This document shows positions 3,443-11,279 of a stretch of 11,279 nt of DNA, piece by piece. The number at the start of each line of letters is the position of its first letter. Positions within the stretch are counted from its first letter, which is position 1. Made by a program: the position numbers and the translations under genes. The DNA comes from a virus (Duplodnaviria > Heunggongvirae > Uroviricota > Caudoviricetes), in IMG/VR virus record IMGVR_UViG_2778261535_000008, positions 1-11,279 of that record; one strand, 5' to 3'. The notes under the pieces were generated by a model. That model did no database searches. It saw only the letters and a list, made by a program, of their open reading frames with translations, and was not told the DNA's origin.

Positions 3443-6400
3443 ATGGGTAAAGGCAGCAGTAAGGGGCATACCCCGCGCGAAGCGAAGGACAACCTGAAGT
3501 CCACGCAGTTACTGAGTGTGATTGATGCCATCAGCGAAGGACCGATTGAAGGTCCGGTGGATGGATTAAAAAGCGTGCTGCTGAACAGTACGCCGGTGCT
3601 GGACAGTGAAGGGAATACCAACATCGCCGGTGTCACGGTGGTGTTCCGGGCAGGTGAGCAGGAGCAGACACCGCCGGAGGGTTTTGAATCCTCCGGATCC
3701 GAGACGGTGCTGGGTACGGAAGTGAAATACGACACGCCGATCACCCGGACCATCACGTCTGCAAACATCGACCGTCTGCGCTTTACCTTCGGTGTGCAGG
3801 CTCTGGTGGAAACCACTTCAAAGGGGGACCGGAATCCGTCGGAAGTCCGCCTGCTGGTTCAGATACAGCGTAACGGTGGCTGGGTGACGGAAAAAGACAT
3901 CACCATTAAGGGCAAAACCACCTCGCAGTATCTGGCCTCGGTGGTGGTGGATAACCTGCCTCCGCGCCCGTTCAATATCCGGATGCGCAGGATGACGCCG
4001 GACAGCACCACAGACCAGCTGCAGAACAAAACGCTCTGGTCGTCATACACCGAAATCATCGATGTGAAACAGTGCTACCCGAACACGGCACTGGTCGGCG
4101 TGCAGGTGGATTCGGAGCAGTTCGGCAGCCAGCAGGTGAGCCGTAATTATCATCTGCGCGGGCGCATTCTGCAGGTGCCGTCGAACTATAACCCGCAGAC
4201 GCGGCAATACAGCGGTATCTGGGACGGGACGTTTAAGCCAGCATACAGCAACAACATGGCCTGGTCTCTGTGGGATATGCTGACCCATCCGCGCTACGGC
4301 ATGGGGAAACGTCTTGGTGCGGCGGATGTGGACAAATGGGCGCTGTATGTCATCGGCCAGCATTGCGATCAGTCGGTGCCGGACGGTTTTGGCGGCACAG
4401 AGCCGCGCATCACCTGTAATGCGTACCTGACCACACAGCGTAAGGCGTGGGATGTTCTCAGTGATTTCTGCTCGGCGATGCGCTGTATGCCGGTATGGAA
4501 CGGGCAGACGCTGACGTTCGTGCAGGACCGACCGTCGGATAAGGTGTGGACCTATAACCGCAGTAATGTGGTGATGCCGGATGATGGCGCGCCGTTCCGC
4601 TACAGCTTCAGCGCCCTGAAGGACCGCCATAATGCCGTTGAGGTGAACTGGATTGACCCGAATAACGGCTGGGAGACGGCGACAGAGCTTGTGGAGGACA
4701 CGCAGGCCATTGCCCGTTACGGTCGTAACGTCACGAAGATGGATGCTTTTGGCTGTACCAGCCGGGGGCAGGCACACCGCGCCGGGCTGTGGCTGATTAA
4801 AACGGAGCTGCTGGAAACGCAGACCGTGGACTTCAGCGTGGGCGCAGAAGGGCTTCGCCATGTACCGGGCGATGTCATTGAAATCTGTGATGATGACTAT
4901 GCGGGTATCAGCATCGGCGGGCGCGTACTGGCGGTGAACAGCCAGACGCGGACACTGACGCTCGACCGTGAAATCACGCTGCCATCCTCCGGCACCACGC
5001 TGATAAGCCTGGTTGACGGACAGGGGAATCCGGTCAGCGTGGAGGTCCAGTCCGTCACCGACGGCGTGAAGGTGAAAGTGAGCCGGGTTCCTGACGGCGT
5101 TGCTGAATACAGCGTGTGGGGGCTGAAGCTGCCGACGCTGCGCCAGCGCCTGTTCCGCTGTGTGAGTATCCGTGAGAACGACGACGGCACGTATGCCATC
5201 ACTGCCGTGCAGCATGTACCGGAAAAAGAAGCCATTGTGGATAACGGGGCGCACTTTGACGGCGACCAGAGCGGCACGGTGAATGGTGTCACGCCGCCAG
5301 CGGTGCAGCACCTGACCGCAGAAGTCACCGCAGACAGCGGGGAATACCAGGTGCTGGCGCGCTGGGATACGCCGAAGGTGGTGAAGGGCGTGAGCTTTAT
5401 GCTTCGCCTGACCGTGGCAGCGGATGACGGCAGTGAGCGGCTGGTCAGCACGGCCCGGACGACGGAAACCACATACCGCTTCAGGCAGCTGGCTCTGGGA
5501 AATTACAGTCTGACAGTCCGGGCGGTAAATGCGTGGGGGCAGCAGGGCGATCCGGCGTCGGTATCGTTCCGGATTGCCGCACCGGCAGCGCCATCGCGGA
5601 TTGAGCTGACGCCGGGCTATTTTCAGATAACCGCCACGCCGCATCTTGCGGTTTATGATCCGACTGTACAGTTTGAGTTCTGGTTCTCGGAAAAGCGGAT
5701 TGCGGATATCAGGCAGGTTGAAACCACAGCCCGCTATCTTGGCACGGCGCTGTACTGGATAGCTGCCAGTATCAATATTAAGCCGGGTCATGATTATTAT
5801 TTTTACGTTCGCAGTGTGAACACCGTTGGCAAATCGGCATTCGTGGAGGCTGTCGGTCGGGCGAGCGATGATGCGGAAGGTTACCTGGATTTTTTCAAAG
5901 GCCAGATAACCGAATCCCATCTCGGCAAGGAGCTGCTGGAAAAAGTCGAGCTGACGGAGGATAACGCCAGCAAACTGGAGGAGTTTTCGAAAGAGTGGAA
6001 AGACGCCAACGATAAATGGAATGCCATGTGGGGCGTCAAAATTGAGCAGACCGAAGACGGCAAACATTATGTCGCGGGGCTTGGCCTTAGTATGGAGGAT
6101 ACGGAGGAAGGCAAACTGAGCCAGTTCCTGGTTGCCGCTAACCGTATCGCGTTTATTGACCCGGCAAACGGGAATGAAACGCCGATGTTTGTGGCGCAGG
6201 GCAACCAGATATTCATGAACGAAGTGTTCCTGAAGTATCTGACGGCTCCCACCATTACCAGTGGCGGCAATCCTCCGGTATTTTCCCTGACACCGGACGG
6301 GCGGCTGACGGCGAAAAATGCCGATATCAGCGGTAACGTGAATGCGAACTCCGGGACGCTCAACAACGTCACGGTAAATGAAAACTGTACGATTAAGGGC

Positions 6401-6856
6401 ATGCTGGAGGCGAACCAGGTCAGAGGTGACTTCGTTAAAGCTGTATCCAAATCATTCCCGAAACAGGCTGGTACGTGGGGTAACACGGAAACACCAAACG
6501 GGACGGTTACAGTCACCATCAGCGATGATCATAACTTTGACCGTCAAATCATTATTCCGCCCATTATCTTTAACGGAATAGCGTATAGCGATCCGGGAAG
6601 TGGTAATAACCCGGGAGGTACAAGATACACGGGTTATGGTTTTGAAGTTCGCAAAAACGGTGTATTAATCGCATCCAGAGAAACTAAAGGGGCCATTCCC
6701 GGTAGCTACAGTGCGGTTATTGATATGCCGAGTGGCAGGGGAAGCGTCACTCTGGAGTTTAAGGTTTTCCATAAAGGCAATCAGTGGGCAGGTAATATCA
6801 CCGACTGTACGGTGATTGTGACCAAAAAAGCCGCTTCCGGCATCAGTATTCGTTGA
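3443..6856 (+). CDS. J: Host specificity protein J (central tail fiber / tip attachment protein)
   Basis: 1137-aa ORF with GGAG at 3431-3434. The N-terminal ~980 aa ([54 protein letters not shown]...) closely match lambda gpJ as I recall it. The C-terminal ~150 aa are divergent (see findings). Confidence 0.95.
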
Positions 6857-6925: not shown

Positions 6926-7525
6926 ATGCGTAAACTTTATGCCGCCATTTTTTCCGCAGCCATCTGTCTGGCCGTATCCGGTGCGCCTGCATGGGCATCT
7001 GAACATCAGTCCACGCTGAGCGCGGGGTATCTTCATGCCTCGACGAACGTTCCCGGCAGCGATGATCTTAACGGGATTAACGTGAAATACCGTTATGAGT
7101 TTACGGACACACTGGGGCTGGTGACGTCATTCAGCTATGCAGGAGACAAGAATCGCCAGCTTACCCGTTACAGCGATACCCGCTGGCATGAAGATTCCGT
7201 GCGTAACCGCTGGTTCAGCGTGATGGCGGGGCCGTCTGTGCGCGTGAATGAATGGTTCAGCGCGTATGCGATGGCGGGTATGGCTTACAGCCGTGTTTCG
7301 ACTTTCTCCGGAGATTATATCCGCGTAACTGACAACAAGGGGAAAACGCACGATGTGCTGACCGGAAGTGATGACGGTCGCCACAGCGACACGTCTCTGG
7401 CATGGGGGGCTGGCGTGCAGTTTAACCCGACCGAATCCGTGGCCATTGATATTGCTTATGAAGGTTCCGGCAGTGGCGACTGGCGCACTGACGGTTTCAT
7501 CGTTGGTGTCGGTTATAAATTCTGA
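6926..7525 (+). CDS. lom: Lom, outer membrane beta-barrel protein of the Ail/Lom/PagC family (moron)
   Basis: 199-aa product with an N-terminal signal peptide ([24 protein letters not shown], AxA cleavage motif), alternating amphipathic beta-strand pattern and a C-terminal aromatic residue (GVGYKF). Located between J and stf as in lambda. RBS GAGAGG at 6915-6920. Confidence 0.9.
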
Positions 7526-7551: not shown

Positions 7552-7578
7552 AGCCCGCCGGTTCAGGCGGGCTTTTTT
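7552..7578 (+). terminator. Rho-independent terminator downstream of lom
   Basis: Stem agcccgcc (7552-7559), loop ggttca, stem ggcgggct (7566-7573), followed by a T-run (7573-7578). Confidence 0.6.
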
Positions 7579-7589
7579 GTGGAGTGGAT

Positions 7590-9986
7590 ATGGCAGCAGT
7601 AAAAATCTCAGGTGTGCTGAAAGATGGTGCGGGAAAACCAATACAGAACTGCACTATTCAACTGAAGGCAAAGCGTAACAGCACCACGGTACTGGTCAAC
7701 ACAGTGGCCTCTGAAAATCCGGACGAAGCCGGGCGTTACAGCATGGATGTTGAGTATGGCCAGTACAGCGTCACCCTGCTGGTTGAAGGTTTTCCGCCTT
7801 CACATGCCGGGACCATTACCGTCTATGAAGGTTCCAGACCAGGTACGCTGAATGATTTTCTCGGTGCCATGACGGAAGATGATGTCATGCCGGAGGCATT
7901 GCGTCGTTTTGAGGAAATGGTGGAAGAAGCGGCACGCAACGCCGAAGCCGCCTCTCAGAGCGCAACGGCGGCAAAGAAATCCGAAACTGCAGCGGCATCA
8001 TCGAAGAACGCGGCGAAAACCTCAGAAACGAATGCAGCTAATAGTGCACAGGCGGCAGCGGCCTCGCAGACTGCATCGGCAAACTCCGCGACAGCAGCCA
8101 AAAAATCAGAAACCAACGCGAAAAACAGCGAGACAGCCGCAAAGACGAGCGAAACCAACGCAAAGTCCAGCCAGACGGCAGCGAAAACCAGCGAAACGAA
8201 TGCCAAAGCCAGTGAAACTGCAGCGAAAAATAGCCAGAATGCAGCAGCCGAAAGCGAGAGCGCGGCAGCCGGTTCTGCGACTTCAGCAGCCGGATCAGCA
8301 ACTGCTGCGGCTAACAGTCAGAAAGCAGCGAAGACGAGCGAAACCAACGCAAAGTCCAGCCAGACGGCAGCGAAGACCAGCGAAACGAATGCTAAAGCCA
8401 GCGAAACTGCGGCGAAAAACAGTCAGGATGCAGCAGCCCAAAGCGAGAGTGCCGCAGCTGGTTCTGCAAGTGCGGCGGCTGCTTCTGCCACTGCATCAGC
8501 CAACAGTCAAAAAGCTGCAAAAACCAGTGAAACCAATGCAAAGACAAGCGAGACTGCAGCGGCGAAATCGGCGCAAGCATCGGCAGCAAGCCAGACAGCA
8601 GCTAAAGCAAGTGAAGACGCAGCCAGGGAGTATGCAAGCCAGGCTGCAGAGCCGTATAAACAAGTTTTGCAGCCCCTGCCTGATGTGTGGATACCGTTTA
8701 ACGATTCACTGGAAATGATTACTGGTTTCGCTCCTGGTTATAAAAAAGTAACTATCGGTGATGATGTTATTACTTTTCCATCAGAGAAAGTTGTATCTTT
8801 CACCCGCTCCACTTCTGCAACGTATATAAATAAATCAGGTTCATTTACTTTTGCAGAAATTAATGAACCGCGCTTTGAAAAGGAAGGTTTATTAATTGAA
8901 GGTCAGAGGACAAATACATTTACGAATAGCAACAATCCTTCATTATGGAACTATGACGACAAGAATATAGAAATAACCACATCGGTTGATGAATATGGTT
9001 TTAAATATGGGTTGTTCGATGTAAAGGAAACATCAACCACTGAAAGGGCGACGATAATATCTACTGGATACAGCAGGGTTATTGATGTTGCTGCAAATGA
9101 ATCTGTTACCTTGTCCTGTAGGGTTAAGAAGATAAATGGAGAAGGTATTATAACGTTAAGACCCAGAATATCTTTCGTTAACGATAACGGCACAAGCAAC
9201 ACGCTGGTAGCTGGTTCCTACATAGATTGCGAAACTGGTGATGTTTTAGGTTTTTCTGGTGGAGATGCTGTAAATCATGTCATATACAGAGAAGCTAACG
9301 GATGGTTACGCGTCGAATTTACATATAAATCACCAGATGCAAAAAGTATGTATGGGCGCTTTGAAATGGGAGCAGATAAAAGGGCGATCAAAAAAGGCGA
9401 TCAGATAATGTTTACTACGCCACAATTTGAAAAAGGATCGTGTGCATCATCATTTATCGTTACATCAGATGTGGCAGTTACACGGGCTAGTGACGTGGTA
9501 ATAATGCCAATAAGACTGAACTGGTCAACGCCTCCGTTAAGCGTTCTTATGGAAGTTAATATCAACTGGGACAAAATGCCAAACAGTGAAGGTTCAGCAA
9601 GGCTTCTTAACGTGTCAATAACTGGCGCAACAACGGATGTTGCTGATGAAAGTTATATGTATTTTGGTTTTACCTCTGGAGGCGCGCGCTCAATTATAAC
9701 TAACGGAAAAGGAACAAAGACCGAGTATAAAGCCTACTGTAACAGGACAACCCGCAGGTTTATTGCTGGATTTAAGTTTACAGAGCAGAAAGAATTGCGT
9801 GCTGTTATAAACGGTAACTTTGGCGCTGTTGGTGTATCACAACACACAAGACAACGTTATACAGAAGGGCCAATAAATATAGGCGGTCAATCAATATCAG
9901 GTAACAGGCATTTATTTGGACACGTACGCAATTTACGTATCTGGCATAAGGAACTGACAGATGCACAAATGGGAGAAAGAATATAA
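7590..9986 (+). CDS. stf: Side tail fiber protein (Stf-like): conserved N-terminal anchor, Ala/Ser/Thr/Lys-rich repeat shaft, divergent distal module with a LamG/ConA-like C-terminus
   Basis: ATG at 7590 is preferred over the GTG at 7584 used by the ORF track; GGAG at 7581-7584. N-terminus MAAVKISGVLKDGAGKPIQNCTIQLKAKRNSTTVLVNTVASENPDEAGRYSMDVEYGQYSV...HAGTITVYE matches the lambda Stf N-terminus as I recall it. The C-terminal motif LFGHVRNLRIWHKELTDAQM resembles the terminal strand signature of Laminin_G_3 / concanavalin-A-like jelly-roll domains. Confidence 0.85.
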   Translation: MAAVKISGVLKDGAGKPIQNCTIQLKAKRNSTTVLVNTVASENPDEAGRYSMDVEYGQYSVTLLVEGFPPSHAGTITVYEGSRPGTLNDFLGAMTEDDVMPEALRRFEEMVEEAARNAEAASQSATAAKKSETAAASSKNAAKTSETNAANSAQAAAASQTASANSATAAKKSETNAKNSETAAKTSETNAKSSQTAAKTSETNAKASETAAKNSQNAAAESESAAAGSATSAAGSATAAANSQKAAKTSETNAKSSQTAAKTSETNAKASETAAKNSQDAAAQSESAAAGSASAAAASATASANSQKAAKTSETNAKTSETAAAKSAQASAASQTAAKASEDAAREYASQAAEPYKQVLQPLPDVWIPFNDSLEMITGFAPGYKKVTIGDDVITFPSEKVVSFTRSTSATYINKSGSFTFAEINEPRFEKEGLLIEGQRTNTFTNSNNPSLWNYDDKNIEITTSVDEYGFKYGLFDVKETSTTERATIISTGYSRVIDVAANESVTLSCRVKKINGEGIITLRPRISFVNDNGTSNTLVAGSYIDCETGDVLGFSGGDAVNHVIYREANGWLRVEFTYKSPDAKSMYGRFEMGADKRAIKKGDQIMFTTPQFEKGSCASSFIVTSDVAVTRASDVVIMPIRLNWSTPPLSVLMEVNINWDKMPNSEGSARLLNVSITGATTDVADESYMYFGFTSGGARSIITNGKGTKTEYKAYCNRTTRRFIAGFKFTEQKELRAVINGNFGAVGVSQHTRQRYTEGPINIGGQSISGNRHLFGHVRNLRIWHKELTDAQMGERI
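8142..8519 (+). repeat. In-frame tandem duplication, 2 x 189 bp (63 codons), within the stf shaft
   Basis: Unit 1 (8142-8330) and unit 2 (8331-8519) both begin aagacgagcgaaaccaacgcaaagtccagccagacggcagcga and stay roughly 90% identical by eye. They encode AKTSETNAKSSQTAAKTSETNAKASETAAKNSQ...SQKA twice. Degenerate shorter copies of the same motif flank both sides (about 7960-8600). Confidence 0.8.
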
Positions 9987-10267
9987 TGCGAGACTTAACC
10001 CTCAAATTCATAAACAAGGCCGACTTTTCGGCCTTTATGGATAGCATTGGTTATGACGATGACGAGGTGATGCAGAACAATGTTCTCATTGATGTGATAG
10101 GTAACGTGTACAAAGAAACCGGAGAAATTACTGAAGATGGCGAGCCGGTATGTGTTAAGGAAGACGGATATTTTGTAAACGTGCGCATCATTAATGATGT
10201 GAAAACACCGTCAATATTCGATGAATACGCGGTTGTTGTTGAGCATCAACTTCGTGGCTGGATGTGA
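9986..10267 (+). CDS. Hypothetical small acidic protein, translationally coupled to stf (possible fiber accessory or assembly factor)
   Basis: 93-aa ORF whose ATG overlaps the stf stop (TAATG at 9984-9988). Asp/Glu-rich; I recognise no family. It occupies the slot where lambda has tfa but shows no resemblance to lambda Tfa. Confidence 0.5.
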   Translation: MRDLTLKFINKADFSAFMDSIGYDDDEVMQNNVLIDVIGNVYKETGEITEDGEPVCVKEDGYFVNVRIINDVKTPSIFDEYAVVVEHQLRGWM

Positions 10268-10276
10268 GGGAGACAA

Positions 10277-10966
10277 ATGGCTACATCGACAGTAATTCCA
10301 GGAGATATCACCACGCTAAAGGGAGATGTCAGTAAAACTAAGGAAGATATTTCCTCAATTAACGGAAAAGTATCAACGCTTCAGATTGATATGACCAGTG
10401 CAAAGCAGGATATCAGCACCAGATACACAAAAACTGAAGTTGATAATAAGCTGAAAAACAAAGTGGAAGCGAACGATCTGGAAAGCGGTCGTTATGGCGG
10501 TGATTTTTACCCGCTGACAGGTCGTGAAGCGTTTTATTTATGGAATTTGGCCACGACTACAGCGGCGGCAAACCTTTATCTTAATCCTGACCCCGCAATT
10601 TCGTCTGTACTGCGGTCAACATCGTCTATTCGCTATAAACATTCAGTAGAGACGATAGATTCAGAGCACGCCGATCTCATTTTCAAGATGCGCCCTGTGT
10701 GGTACAGGTCGCAATGCGAAAATGACAGGCGTGACTGGGGATTCTACGGGTTGATTGCCGAGGAAGTAGGAGAAATTGCCCCTCAGTTTGTACACTGGCG
10801 ACCAGCTAACGAGAATGATGCTCCTGAAGCTATTTCCAGCAATGGCCTTGTAGCCGAAGGTGTAATGTACGAACGTCTGGTTGTTCCACTGATTCACCAT
10901 ATCCAGAAACTGACTGAAAGAGTTGAAGAACTTGAGTCAGAATTAAAGTTGTTATCAACTTCCTGA
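10277..10966 (+). CDS. Short fiber-like protein with N-terminal coiled-coil region and C-terminal intramolecular chaperone (peptidase S74-like) auto-processing domain
   Basis: 229-aa ORF with GGAG at 10269-10272. N-terminal 70 aa are heptad-like and Ser/Thr/Lys-rich. The C-terminal 110 aa (SSIRYKHSVETIDSEHADLIFKMRPVWYR...WGFYGLIAEEVGEIAPQFV...EGVMYERLVVPLIHHIQKLTERVEELESELKLL) match the conserved pattern of the chaperone-of-endosialidase domain: Ser...Lys dyad, GxIAQEV-like core, Y-x-x-L-V/I-P-L-I and a terminal coiled coil. Confidence 0.65.
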   Translation: MATSTVIPGDITTLKGDVSKTKEDISSINGKVSTLQIDMTSAKQDISTRYTKTEVDNKLKNKVEANDLESGRYGGDFYPLTGREAFYLWNLATTTAAANLYLNPDPAISSVLRSTSSIRYKHSVETIDSEHADLIFKMRPVWYRSQCENDRRDWGFYGLIAEEVGEIAPQFVHWRPANENDAPEAISSNGLVAEGVMYERLVVPLIHHIQKLTERVEELESELKLLSTS

Positions 10967-10991: not shown

Positions 10992-11279
10992 ATGGATATA
11001 AGCCCCTTACTTCATGCGCTTTGTGCTGTGGCTGCGCAGGTACTGATTGGCCTTTTTACCGGAAACTGGGCTTACGGTGCGATAGCTGGTTGTTCGTTCT
11101 TCATTGCGCGCGAACACACCCAGGCAGAATATCGCTGGATTGAAATGTTCGGACATGGCAAGCGTATGAATATGCCGTGGTGGGGCGGTTTTGATCCACG
11201 CGCGTGGGATGTAGCAAGTCTGATGGATTTTTCTGTGCCGGTGGTGGCGTGTATTCTGGTCTGGCTGTTGATCCGTTGA
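10992..11279 (+). CDS. Hypothetical small membrane protein, possible lipoprotein (candidate moron)
   Basis: 95-aa ORF with a strong RBS AAGGAGG at 10981-10987; the stop is the last codon of the window. Two hydrophobic segments (residues about 5-38 and 80-94). A lipobox-like IAGC motif at residues 31-34 follows the first segment. No family recognised. Confidence 0.45.
   Translation: MDISPLLHALCAVAAQVLIGLFTGNWAYGAIAGCSFFIAREHTQAEYRWIEMFGHGKRMNMPWWGGFDPRAWDVASLMDFSVPVVACILVWLLIR

Follow-up and report, generated by a model that had tools for sequence, protein, structure and literature searches.

The window analysed here, a stretch of 11,279 nucleotides of tailed-phage DNA, carries a 93-codon gene directly after the side tail fibre gene (stf). 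Its product, p93, obligately co-occurs with one type of fibre end, in which a GTA-spike-fibre domain is followed by a ConA/LamG-like domain. Our preferred, though tentative, reading is that p93 is a fibre-tip assembly factor or cap dedicated to fibres ending in this way, because it persists where the distal fibre encoded downstream is absent.

Gene organization

Coordinates of all features are provided in Table 1. The stop codon of stf (TAA, 9984-9986) and the start codon of p93 (ATG, 9986-9988) overlap as TAATG at 9984-9988 (junction sequence gaaagaataTAATGcga); the first ends and the second begins at 9986, so one base is common to the two genes, which are read in different frames. A Shine-Dalgarno sequence for p93 (GGGAG, 9971-9975) lies within the stf coding sequence. 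The protein contains 19 Asp and Glu residues against 8 Lys and Arg (pI 4.19, net charge about -11). Exactly 93 codons are found in 80/80 close relatives from IMG/VR and the pairwise dN/dS is about 0.32; given both observations, p93 is a real gene under purifying selection, and the reading that it is not a gene was rejected on these grounds. It is not a 'moron' either, as it also occurs in strictly virulent phages. Coordinates, composition and the 80 relatives thus confirm the first-pass annotation on this point, namely an acidic 93-aa open reading frame coupled to stf through TAATG.

Table 1 Features of the window around the stf/p93 junction
Feature	Position	Strand	Basis and remarks
Intrinsic-terminator-like hairpin	7552-7573	+	3' of lom, 5' of stf
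stf, side (proximal) tail fibre, 800 aa	7584-9986	+	PF08400, phrog_1419, NF048003
Left conserved arm, stf shaft/head junction	8630-8950	+	66-82% nucleotide identity, all lineages compared
Hypervariable stf receptor-binding cassette	8951-9908	+	27-48% aa identity where flanks are 80-95% identical
Conserved junction island	9909-10341	+	84-95% nucleotide identity to IdasGreatGrand, 2G7b and Nonagvirus ESCO3
p93 gene, 93 aa	9986-10267	+	ATG start; open reading frame list, PHROG 1361 match
Short distal fibre protein, 229 aa	10277-10966	+	PF13884; matches C-terminal ends of long fibre PHROGs
Peptidase_S74 (IMC) domain, distal fibre aa 116-172	10622-10792	+	PF13884, 27.6 bits, cut-off 22
Membrane protein, 95 aa, last operon gene	10992-11279	+	phrog_1443 / FIG00639861, PHROG match

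The listed start of stf is a GTG at 7584, but the true start is more likely the ATG at 7590. An N-terminal phage_tail_N domain (Pfam PF08400, E 6e-67) is followed by an Ala/Ser-rich repeat shaft and a C-terminal receptor-binding module; the PHROG match is phrog_1419. Within the module, residues 437-635 match the NCBIfam model GTA_spike_fiber (NF048003, E 2e-20), and stf also matches the RcGTA head spike fibre Rcc01080 (PDB 6TB9, E 1e-6). The end of stf had been called LamG in the first-pass annotation; Laminin_G_3 (PF13385) matches the last ~65 residues, though below threshold (22 bits, with a gathering score of 27.6 and E 2e-4). Independent support is provided by the BASEL paper, in whose AlphaFold model the equivalent T5-like fibre ends in a galectin-like domain.

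No tfa gene follows stf in the window; what remains after p93 is a fibre protein with an intramolecular chaperone (IMC) and a membrane protein, and no terminator-like site is found on the + strand from stf to the window end. The distal fibre consists of an N-terminal motif (MATSTVIPGDITTLKGD), a coiled coil and the C-terminal Peptidase_S74 IMC. Its gene begins 9 nt past the p93 stop with its own Shine-Dalgarno sequence (GAGGGAG). The first-pass annotation was correct as to the coupling of stf and p93 but incomplete, since the closely spaced distal fibre gene makes this a three-gene module. The prophage in the nearest E. coli genome extends for another ~1 kb, up to yodB/zinT.

Family and predicted structure

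The p93 protein matches PHROG 1361 over its full length (E 1e-43; residues 1-93 align to positions 1-92 of the 92-position profile). This family, also SEED FIG00639828, is always annotated 'hypothetical' and has neither a Pfam or NCBIfam model nor a solved structure. Its members occur in hundreds of sequenced phages, phage 21 included, and in thousands of E. coli contigs, for which reason the statement that the family was unknown proved too strong. Named members are CPT_21_23 of phage 21, bas05_0030 of PeterMerian, mar004NP2_00161 and the ORF136 slot of AKFV33; with the same position and coupling, the gene of the window is an ordinary member. Nearly invariant in the family are the N-terminal strand MxDLxLKF, DxIG, DGYFVNxR and the C-terminal PxRxW(A).

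A Pfam search of p93 at E<=1 returned no family, hence no Caudo_TAP (PF02413), and no match to Peptidase_S74 (PF13884). NCBIfam gave no match, and a phmmer search of the PDB at E<=10 yielded weak GAPDH noise only. Using an alignment of diverse representatives, AlphaFold2 predicted a compact alpha/beta domain with a pLDDT of 87 (close homologues alone gave 58). Comparison of this model with known folds revealed no analogue, nor did it match the solved Tfa structures. The structure prediction that had been suggested as a check thus leads to no characterised fold, and the earlier claim that the coupled gene is not a lambda-type Tfa holds at the level of Pfam, NCBIfam, meaningful PDB matches and fold. 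Model confidence is lowest in the nearly invariant C-terminal RxW tail, as would be expected for a segment that becomes ordered on a partner.

Linkage to the fibre end

Homologues of p93 are located directly 3' of a lateral or side tail fibre gene in lambdoid phages, Drexlerviridae, Dhillonvirus, Nonagvirus, T5-like phages and some Vequintavirus; in GenBank, the same combination of fibre end and small gene is present in six phage lineages. Aeromonas, Cupriavidus, Pseudomonas and environmental phages also have homologues (for example after the fibre of an Aeromonas T5-like phage, HMM E 4e-13), which retain the motifs, the size and the position behind the fibre beyond nucleotide similarity. Repeating the homologue search with the diverse alignment brought up hardly any sequences beyond the ~120 close E. 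coli ones recovered at first.

Loci were gathered by single-protein scans, and genomes were scanned with the trimmed alignment. At 135 loci we compared the start of the p93 homologue with the stop of a large + strand open reading frame: the offset is -1 or -4 (TAATG or ATGA), or the two lie within ~10 nt. Where the upstream protein was at least 300 aa, and the locus thus usable, it carried the C-terminal 330-aa module of the window's stf product in 122/122 cases (jackhmmer, 77-447 bits). Conversely, 222 phage records contain the module and 187 contain p93, and the two sets break down by host in nearly the same way. RcapMu58 and RcGTA Rcc01080, whose GTA-spike-fibre domain comes without the LamG-like end, have no p93-like open reading frame after the fibre. 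In rV5 the fibre module is absent, and its proteome is therefore irrelevant to p93. Previously, p93 had been proposed as a partner specific to the LamG-type end and a survey of co-occurrence had been suggested; the homologues do stand directly behind LamG-like-ended fibres at every usable locus and are missing behind the two fibres lacking that end.

Published work offers little on the gene itself. The Eligo preprint on lambda-Stf engineering, the Hf4s preprint, the lambdoid co-transfer paper and the genome announcement of phage 21 are silent on it. The published virion proteomes of mar004NP2 (8 proteins) and AKFV33 (4 proteins), obtained by mass spectrometry of low sensitivity, include the proximal fibre and neither p93 nor the distal fibre.

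A conserved island between two variable cassettes

The left conserved arm extends its nucleotide conservation over lambdoid, T5-like, Drexlerviridae, Dhillonvirus and Nonagvirus fibres. It is followed by a cassette comprising the GTA-spike-fibre-like domain and the body of the LamG-like domain, and then by the junction island, which starts ~25-30 codons before the end of stf, spans all of p93 and runs ~21-25 codons into the distal fibre gene. Hypervariable receptor-binding cassettes thus flank the island on either side. Across lineages the last 30 residues of stf (RIGGQ..G.RHLFGH.RN.RIWHK.LTD.Q) are 63-83% identical, against 24-40% for the LamG body. Among 941 pairs with p93 at least 90% identical, the LamG body is less than 50% identical in 663. 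There is thus no co-variation between p93 and the LamG-like body; p93 is a constant element that is not tuned per receptor-binding variant.

The position of this island might be taken to mean that p93 is a passenger: a recombination linker between exchangeable cassettes without a role in fibre assembly, or a protein with some other late function (transient masking of the tip against debris, regulation, exclusion). Its place within a nucleotide-conserved arm flanking both variable cassettes, the missing co-variation with the receptor-binding domain and the lack of a known fold analogue are all in line with such a role, and for other fibres it has been suggested that chaperones act as transient caps (PMC10579305). 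We nevertheless regard it as improbable. Conservation of the protein reaches Cupriavidus, Pseudomonas, Aeromonas and environmental metagenome phages, far past nucleotide similarity; its dN/dS is about 0.32, and over the whole range its start still overlaps the stop of the fibre gene. A passive linker would not show this pattern, and masking of the tip would really be a variant of tip binding.

The same island can also be read as a joint. According to this alternative, p93 would be a structural virion adaptor seated at the C-terminus of the proximal fibre, a platform on which the IMC-bearing distal fibre would dock by its N-terminal peptide (MATSTVIPGDITTLK being the candidate docking peptide). 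By analogy with the T4 gp35/gp36 and DT57C LtfA-LtfB junctions, it would be the constant hub of a two-part fibre, either branched or extended. Several observations point this way. One conserved island unites p93 with the end of stf and the distal N-terminus, and p93 identity correlates best with the 25 N-terminal residues of the distal fibre (Spearman 0.57, against 0.26-0.38 for other segments). In the 941 pairs, the docking peptide falls below 70% identity in just 33, versus 434 in which the distal body falls below 40%. A distal N-terminal motif, M[AV]T.T[VN]IP.DIT.LK, is common to lambdoid, T5-like, Drexlerviridae, Dhillonvirus and Nonagvirus phages despite unrelated bodies; it occurs in 62 phage records and lies 9-18 nt after the p93 gene in 19/19 with cross-checked coordinates. 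Moreover, the 9-nt spacing is fixed in 78/80 close relatives, with the downstream gene scored as IMC-bearing in 74.

The distal fibre is, however, not a constant companion. Phage 21 and ev017 have the order stf, p93 homologue, membrane protein, without distal fibre; in the Vequintavirus CarlMeissner a hairpin reading as a terminator lies directly 3' of the small open reading frame; and environmental relatives mostly have small membrane proteins (holin-like by eye) or other genes in its place. In all of these, as in related lambdoid phages, p93 is intact. In addition, the accessible part of the BASEL paper presents a model of the IrisVonRoten proximal and distal fibre complex without mention of a small protein there, and gene linkage alone could yield the correlation of p93 with the adjoining 25 codons. 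A docking platform is the main rival reading, though less likely than a tip assembly factor or cap. Unlikely, in our estimation, is its fullest version, in which p93 would be a new virion hub: a constant plug of the proximal fibre that takes interchangeable, IMC-matured distal receptor-binding fibres via a ~20-residue N-terminal docking peptide, and that forms with the invariant fibre tail a universal 'socket' letting six unrelated coliphage lineages (lambdoid, T1-like, T5-like, Dhillonvirus, 9g-like and some rV5-like) swap two receptor-binding cassettes independently.

Comparison with known systems

Like lambda/Mu/P2-type Tfa, p93 is small and acidic, is encoded directly after and coupled to a side tail fibre gene, and is expected to act in assembly of the tip; Tfa remains bound to the Mu fibre tip (cited in PMC11990801). 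The two nonetheless differ: they share no sequence similarity, p93 is about half the size, its compact alpha/beta fold does not match Tfa, and its client fibre ends in globular lectin-like domains whereas that of Tfa has a Tfa-type tip.

T5-like two-part fibres (LtfA/LtfB of DT57C, Gp22/Gp24 of IrisVonRoten) resemble the window in having a tail-anchored proximal fibre that bears an IMC-type receptor-binding fibre, and IrisVonRoten-type and mar004NP2-type loci even have the same three-gene order. DT57C differs in that ltfA and ltfB are numbered adjacently (gp108 and gp107) and LtfA is of a different fibre type; as the DT57C papers describe no open reading frame between the two genes, they give no direct precedent for p93. 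Rcc01080 and the RcapMu58 fibre are homologous to the central part of the stf C-terminal module but differ in the missing LamG-like domain and p93-like gene. Adsorption to cells that display the capsular polysaccharide receptor requires Rcc01080.

In Alteromonas phages V22 and A5 a small gene likewise stands right after the fibre gene, and the small IMC-like proteins it encodes have been proposed as chaperone and temporary cap. These chaperones resemble the Peptidase_S74 IMC, which p93 does not; in the window the IMC is found in the next gene. It might be argued that the downstream 229-aa protein is the true Tfa substitute, its S74 domain chaperoning stf in trans and p93 being incidental. The BASEL annotation of the Drexlerviridae homologue (PeterMerian, KarlJaspers) as 'putative lateral tail fiber chaperone', the separately encoded chaperones of the Alteromonas phages and the short mature part left to the 229-aa protein (just ~115 aa) would fit. 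We consider this highly improbable, given that homologues of 346-573 aa have full receptor-binding domains before the IMC and are thus fibres themselves. The stf product ends in globular domains and is not of the fibre type that IMCs, such as those of endosialidase and T5 pb1, are known to fold. Furthermore, many phages have stf and p93 without the 229-aa gene; phage 21, with no IMC gene, suggests a functional Stf, and p93 would be left unexplained.

Proposed role of p93

For p93 as a tip assembly factor or cap, the following course may be envisaged. Through the stop/start overlap p93 is co-produced with the fibre, and it would bind a part of the fibre tip that does not vary. For this site the conserved last ~30 residues of stf are the best candidate, contacted probably via the conserved termini of p93. 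There p93 would help the tip to fold or assemble and may stay on it as a cap, filling the functional slot of lambda Tfa with an unrelated fold. From the linkage and conservation described above we infer that p93 binds the fibre physically, where it does so, and that it serves in assembly or as a cap.

Fibres of the stf type are thought to bind surface glycans: O-antigen in the case of T5-like lateral fibres, capsule in that of the RcGTA spike fibre. Lambda-based delivery particles and therapeutic phages are re-targeted mainly by way of such side and lateral fibres. Should folding or completion of the fibre depend on p93, any chimeric Stf protein built from this widespread module will need the cognate p93, as lambda-type chimeras need Tfa. 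Positions 8630-8950 and 9909-10341 offer practical splice points, being the arms that nature appears to use for exchange of receptor-binding cassettes. A single three-gene fibre design is common to phage 21 and to T1-like, T5-like and 9g-like phages, and a family that is annotated 'hypothetical' in thousands of E. coli contigs now has a testable function.

Gene order and identity of the coupled ORF

The window forms the right-hand end of a lambdoid prophage of E. coli, where tail genes are followed by gpJ, lom, stf (the side, or proximal, tail fibre gene) and three small genes on the + strand. The first-pass annotation had described an acidic 93-aa ORF, here called p93, coupled to stf by TAATG, and this is confirmed: the ATG is preceded at 10 nt by GGGAG within stf, the protein is acidic (D+E 19 against K+R 8; pI 4.2), exactly 93 codons are retained in 80 of 80 close relatives from IMG/VR and pairwise dN/dS is about 0.32. 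p93 is a real gene. Its description as 'unrecognised' holds for Pfam, NCBIfam and the PDB sequence set, which give no match, but not for PHROG 1361, whose profile covers the full length (E 1e-43); p93 is an ordinary member of this catalogued but uncharacterised family. The absent matches also rule out a Tfa/Caudo_TAP identity. As no tfa occurs further on either (the prophage of the closest genome ends ~1 kb further, at yodB/zinT), stf is indeed not followed by a lambda-type Tfa.

Features of the window and their coordinates
Feature	Position	Strand	Remarks
gpJ	3443-6856
674-aa antisense ORF	4043-6067	-	within gpJ
lom	6926-7525
stf	7584-9986	+	proximal fibre
279-aa alternative-frame ORF	7879-8718
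stf shaft repeats	7900-8650		aa ~110-350
Conserved island 1	8630-8950		nucleotide-conserved, window against other phages
Hypervariable cassette	8951-9908		receptor-binding; between the islands
Conserved island 2	9909-10341		last ~25-30 codons of stf, whole p93, first ~21-25 codons of distal fibre gene
p93	9986-10267	+	93 aa; ATG shares one base with stf stop (TAATG, 9984-9988)
Distal fibre	10277-10966	+	229 aa; N-terminal coiled coil, C-terminal Peptidase_S74 intramolecular chaperone
Membrane protein	10992-11279	+	95 aa; phrog_1443 / FIG00639861; final gene of the operon, where the prophage ends

The distal fibre gene, absent from the first-pass annotation, is preceded by its own GAGGGAG and begins 9 nt past the stop of p93. 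Its product scores 27.6 bits for Peptidase_S74 (cut-off 22) and aligns with long tail-fibre PHROGs at their C-terminal ends; that this intramolecular chaperone protein would be the true chaperone in trans is very improbable. A terminator-like hairpin lies upstream of stf and no terminator-like site was found on the + strand from stf to the window end; therefore stf, p93, the short distal fibre gene and the membrane protein gene are regarded as one unit. The membrane protein, to which the phage 21 annotation assigns two transmembrane segments, could serve in lysogenic conversion or exclusion. Its gene is 93% nucleotide-identical to the versions of phage 21 and ev017, where it lies directly 3' of the small ORF. 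The antisense ORF in gpJ is almost certainly non-coding, because the J annotation on the + strand is strong.

The fibre end and its companion

The stf protein starts with the N-terminal domain typical of prophage tail fibres (PF08400), and over its last ~430 aa it shows homology to Rcc01080, the head spike fibre of RcGTA (NF048003, E 2e-20; PDB 6TB9, E 1e-6). Calling its end 'LamG-type' is reasonable, although support from the profile score is weak (a sub-threshold Laminin_G_3/ConA-like match). For Gp22, the equivalent proximal fibre of the T5-like phage IrisVonRoten, the relevant passages of the BASEL paper (PMC11990801) describe a protruding galectin-like domain at the end. The shaft consists of near-identical Ala/Ser/Thr/Lys-rich repeats (AAKTSETNAKSSQTAAKTSETNAKASETAAKNSQ, for example, is present twice), of which the 279-aa ORF is a by-product. 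In the closest complete genome, E. coli AMSCJX02 (NZ_CP031105.1; locus L139, 6007-8403; 97% identity), stf is broken into a pseudogene and fragments, with the p93 and distal fibre genes intact.

The p93 family occupies little sequence space: a set of 1.84 billion proteins yields only 57 representatives at 50% identity, and many of these are fragments. In E. coli prophages the family is nevertheless very common. With tblastn it was found in 187 GenBank phage records. Annotated carriers are lambdoid phages, Drexlerviridae, Dhillonvirus, Nonagvirus, Tequintavirus and a subset of Vequintavirus, and in the annotated examples of each lineage the gene lies directly 3' of one labelled tail fibre or tail protein; in classical phage 21 it is the 'hypothetical protein' CPT_21_23. 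Remoter members come from environmental viral contigs, from a T5-like phage of Aeromonas and from genomes of Buttiauxella, Cupriavidus and Pseudomonas.

Among 135 fetched loci, nearly all have the start of the small ORF either overlapping the stop of a large ORF upstream (by 1 or 4 nt) or within ~10 nt of that stop. The proposed survey of homologues and their tail fibres gave a uniform outcome: the 330 aa that form the C-terminal module of stf in the window recur in all 122 upstream proteins of at least 300 aa. The reverse search finds this module in 222 phage records, whose hosts are distributed almost as those of the p93 records. RcapMu58 and Rcc01080, in contrast, share only the GTA-spike-fibre part with stf, and neither is followed by a small gene. 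Thus p93 is a specific companion of fibres having the complete end module, in line with the earlier suggestion of a partner specific to the LamG-type distal module.

Some records deserve a separate remark. The small-ORF and fibre sequences of 'Campylobacter phage' C15, A12a, C2 and A116 (MG065654, MG065666, MG065655, MG065676) and 'Listeria phage LM 4-11-1' (OR847733) are either the same as those of coliphage Vequintavirus or T5-like phages or related to them; mislabelled hosts or contamination of the records probably account for this. Phage 2G7b carries, ~2.3 kb downstream of its stf/p93/distal fibre module, two short ORFs (66 and 44 aa; locus L002, 7664-7962) annotated 'Phage tail fiber assembly protein', apparently left over from an older fibre locus of the Tfa type. 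An 866-aa fibre-like repeat protein (P0166) has four stretches with weak similarity to the p93 profile (E 1.4e-4), which is probably spurious and due to its repeats.

Published record

No paper discussing a p93 family protein was found in the literature. Virion mass spectrometry of mar004NP2 identified only 8 proteins, with the proximal fibre among them and the small protein and distal fibre both missing. For AKFV33 (Niu et al.; 4 proteins identified by mass spectrometry) ORF137 and ORF135 were named as the two fibre proteins, with ORF136 unmentioned, and the DT57C LtfA/LtfB papers describe no ORF between the two genes. The relevant passages of PMC11990801 model the proximal and distal fibres without discussing the small protein, and give the IrisVonRoten proximal fibre two different numbers, Gp22 and Gp23 (Fig 12 legend against main text). 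Because homologous T5-like loci hold a p93 member between the proximal and distal fibre genes, the IrisVonRoten protein is probably the overlooked gene between Gp22 and Gp24.

A constant element in a mosaic locus

Lambdoid, T5-like, T1-like, Dhillonvirus and 9g-like phages all keep the nucleotide sequence of both islands, which look like natural recombination arms for exchange of the cassette between them. Over 58 non-redundant three-gene modules, mean identity is 86% for p93, 80% for both the last 30 aa of stf and the N-terminal 25 aa of the distal fibre, 58% for the GTA-like domain and the distal body, and 48% for the LamG body. Among 941 pairs with p93 at least 90% identical, LamG bodies are below 50% identity in 663 and distal bodies below 40% in 434; the stf tail has diverged in 11 and the docking peptide (the conserved distal N-terminus) in 33. 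Conversely, mar004NP2 and PeterMerian have LamG bodies 91% identical and small proteins only 50%. Given these comparisons, p93 is a constant element that tracks phage lineage, not receptor specificity.

Role of p93

p93 is very probably a dedicated partner of this fibre class, an assignment we consider well supported; how it acts we infer. We tentatively favour a tip assembly factor or cap, which would recognise an invariant feature of the fibre end, because no partner but the upstream fibre is universal, the stf-p93 coupling has survived very deep divergence and p93 is retained where a distal fibre is missing. The INDEPENDENCE of p93 from the distal fibre is seen in phage 21 and ev017, which carry stf, p93 and the membrane protein and no distal gene. 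In CarlMeissner the small ORF is directly followed by a GC-rich hairpin and a run of T, taken by eye for a terminator, and in most environmental relatives small membrane proteins (holin-like, by eye) or other genes come next; p93 is intact in all of these.

The main rival, somewhat unlikely in our estimate, is a virion hub on which the conserved N-terminal peptide of the distal fibre would dock. Distal proteins of five siphovirus lineages share the N-terminal motif M[AV]T.T[VN]IP.DIT.LK, with unrelated bodies behind it; it was detected in 62 phage records and lies 9-18 nt past the p93 gene in 19 of 19 with cross-checkable coordinates. This exclusive adjacency and the conserved island around p93 argue for the hub. 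The tip factor or cap is compatible with it if p93 stays on the tip. A non-assembly role or a passive linker is improbable.

p93 would belong to the same functional class as known tail-fibre accessory proteins, differing from them in its unrelated fold and in the kind of fibre end it serves. The finding is useful for fibre engineering and annotation.
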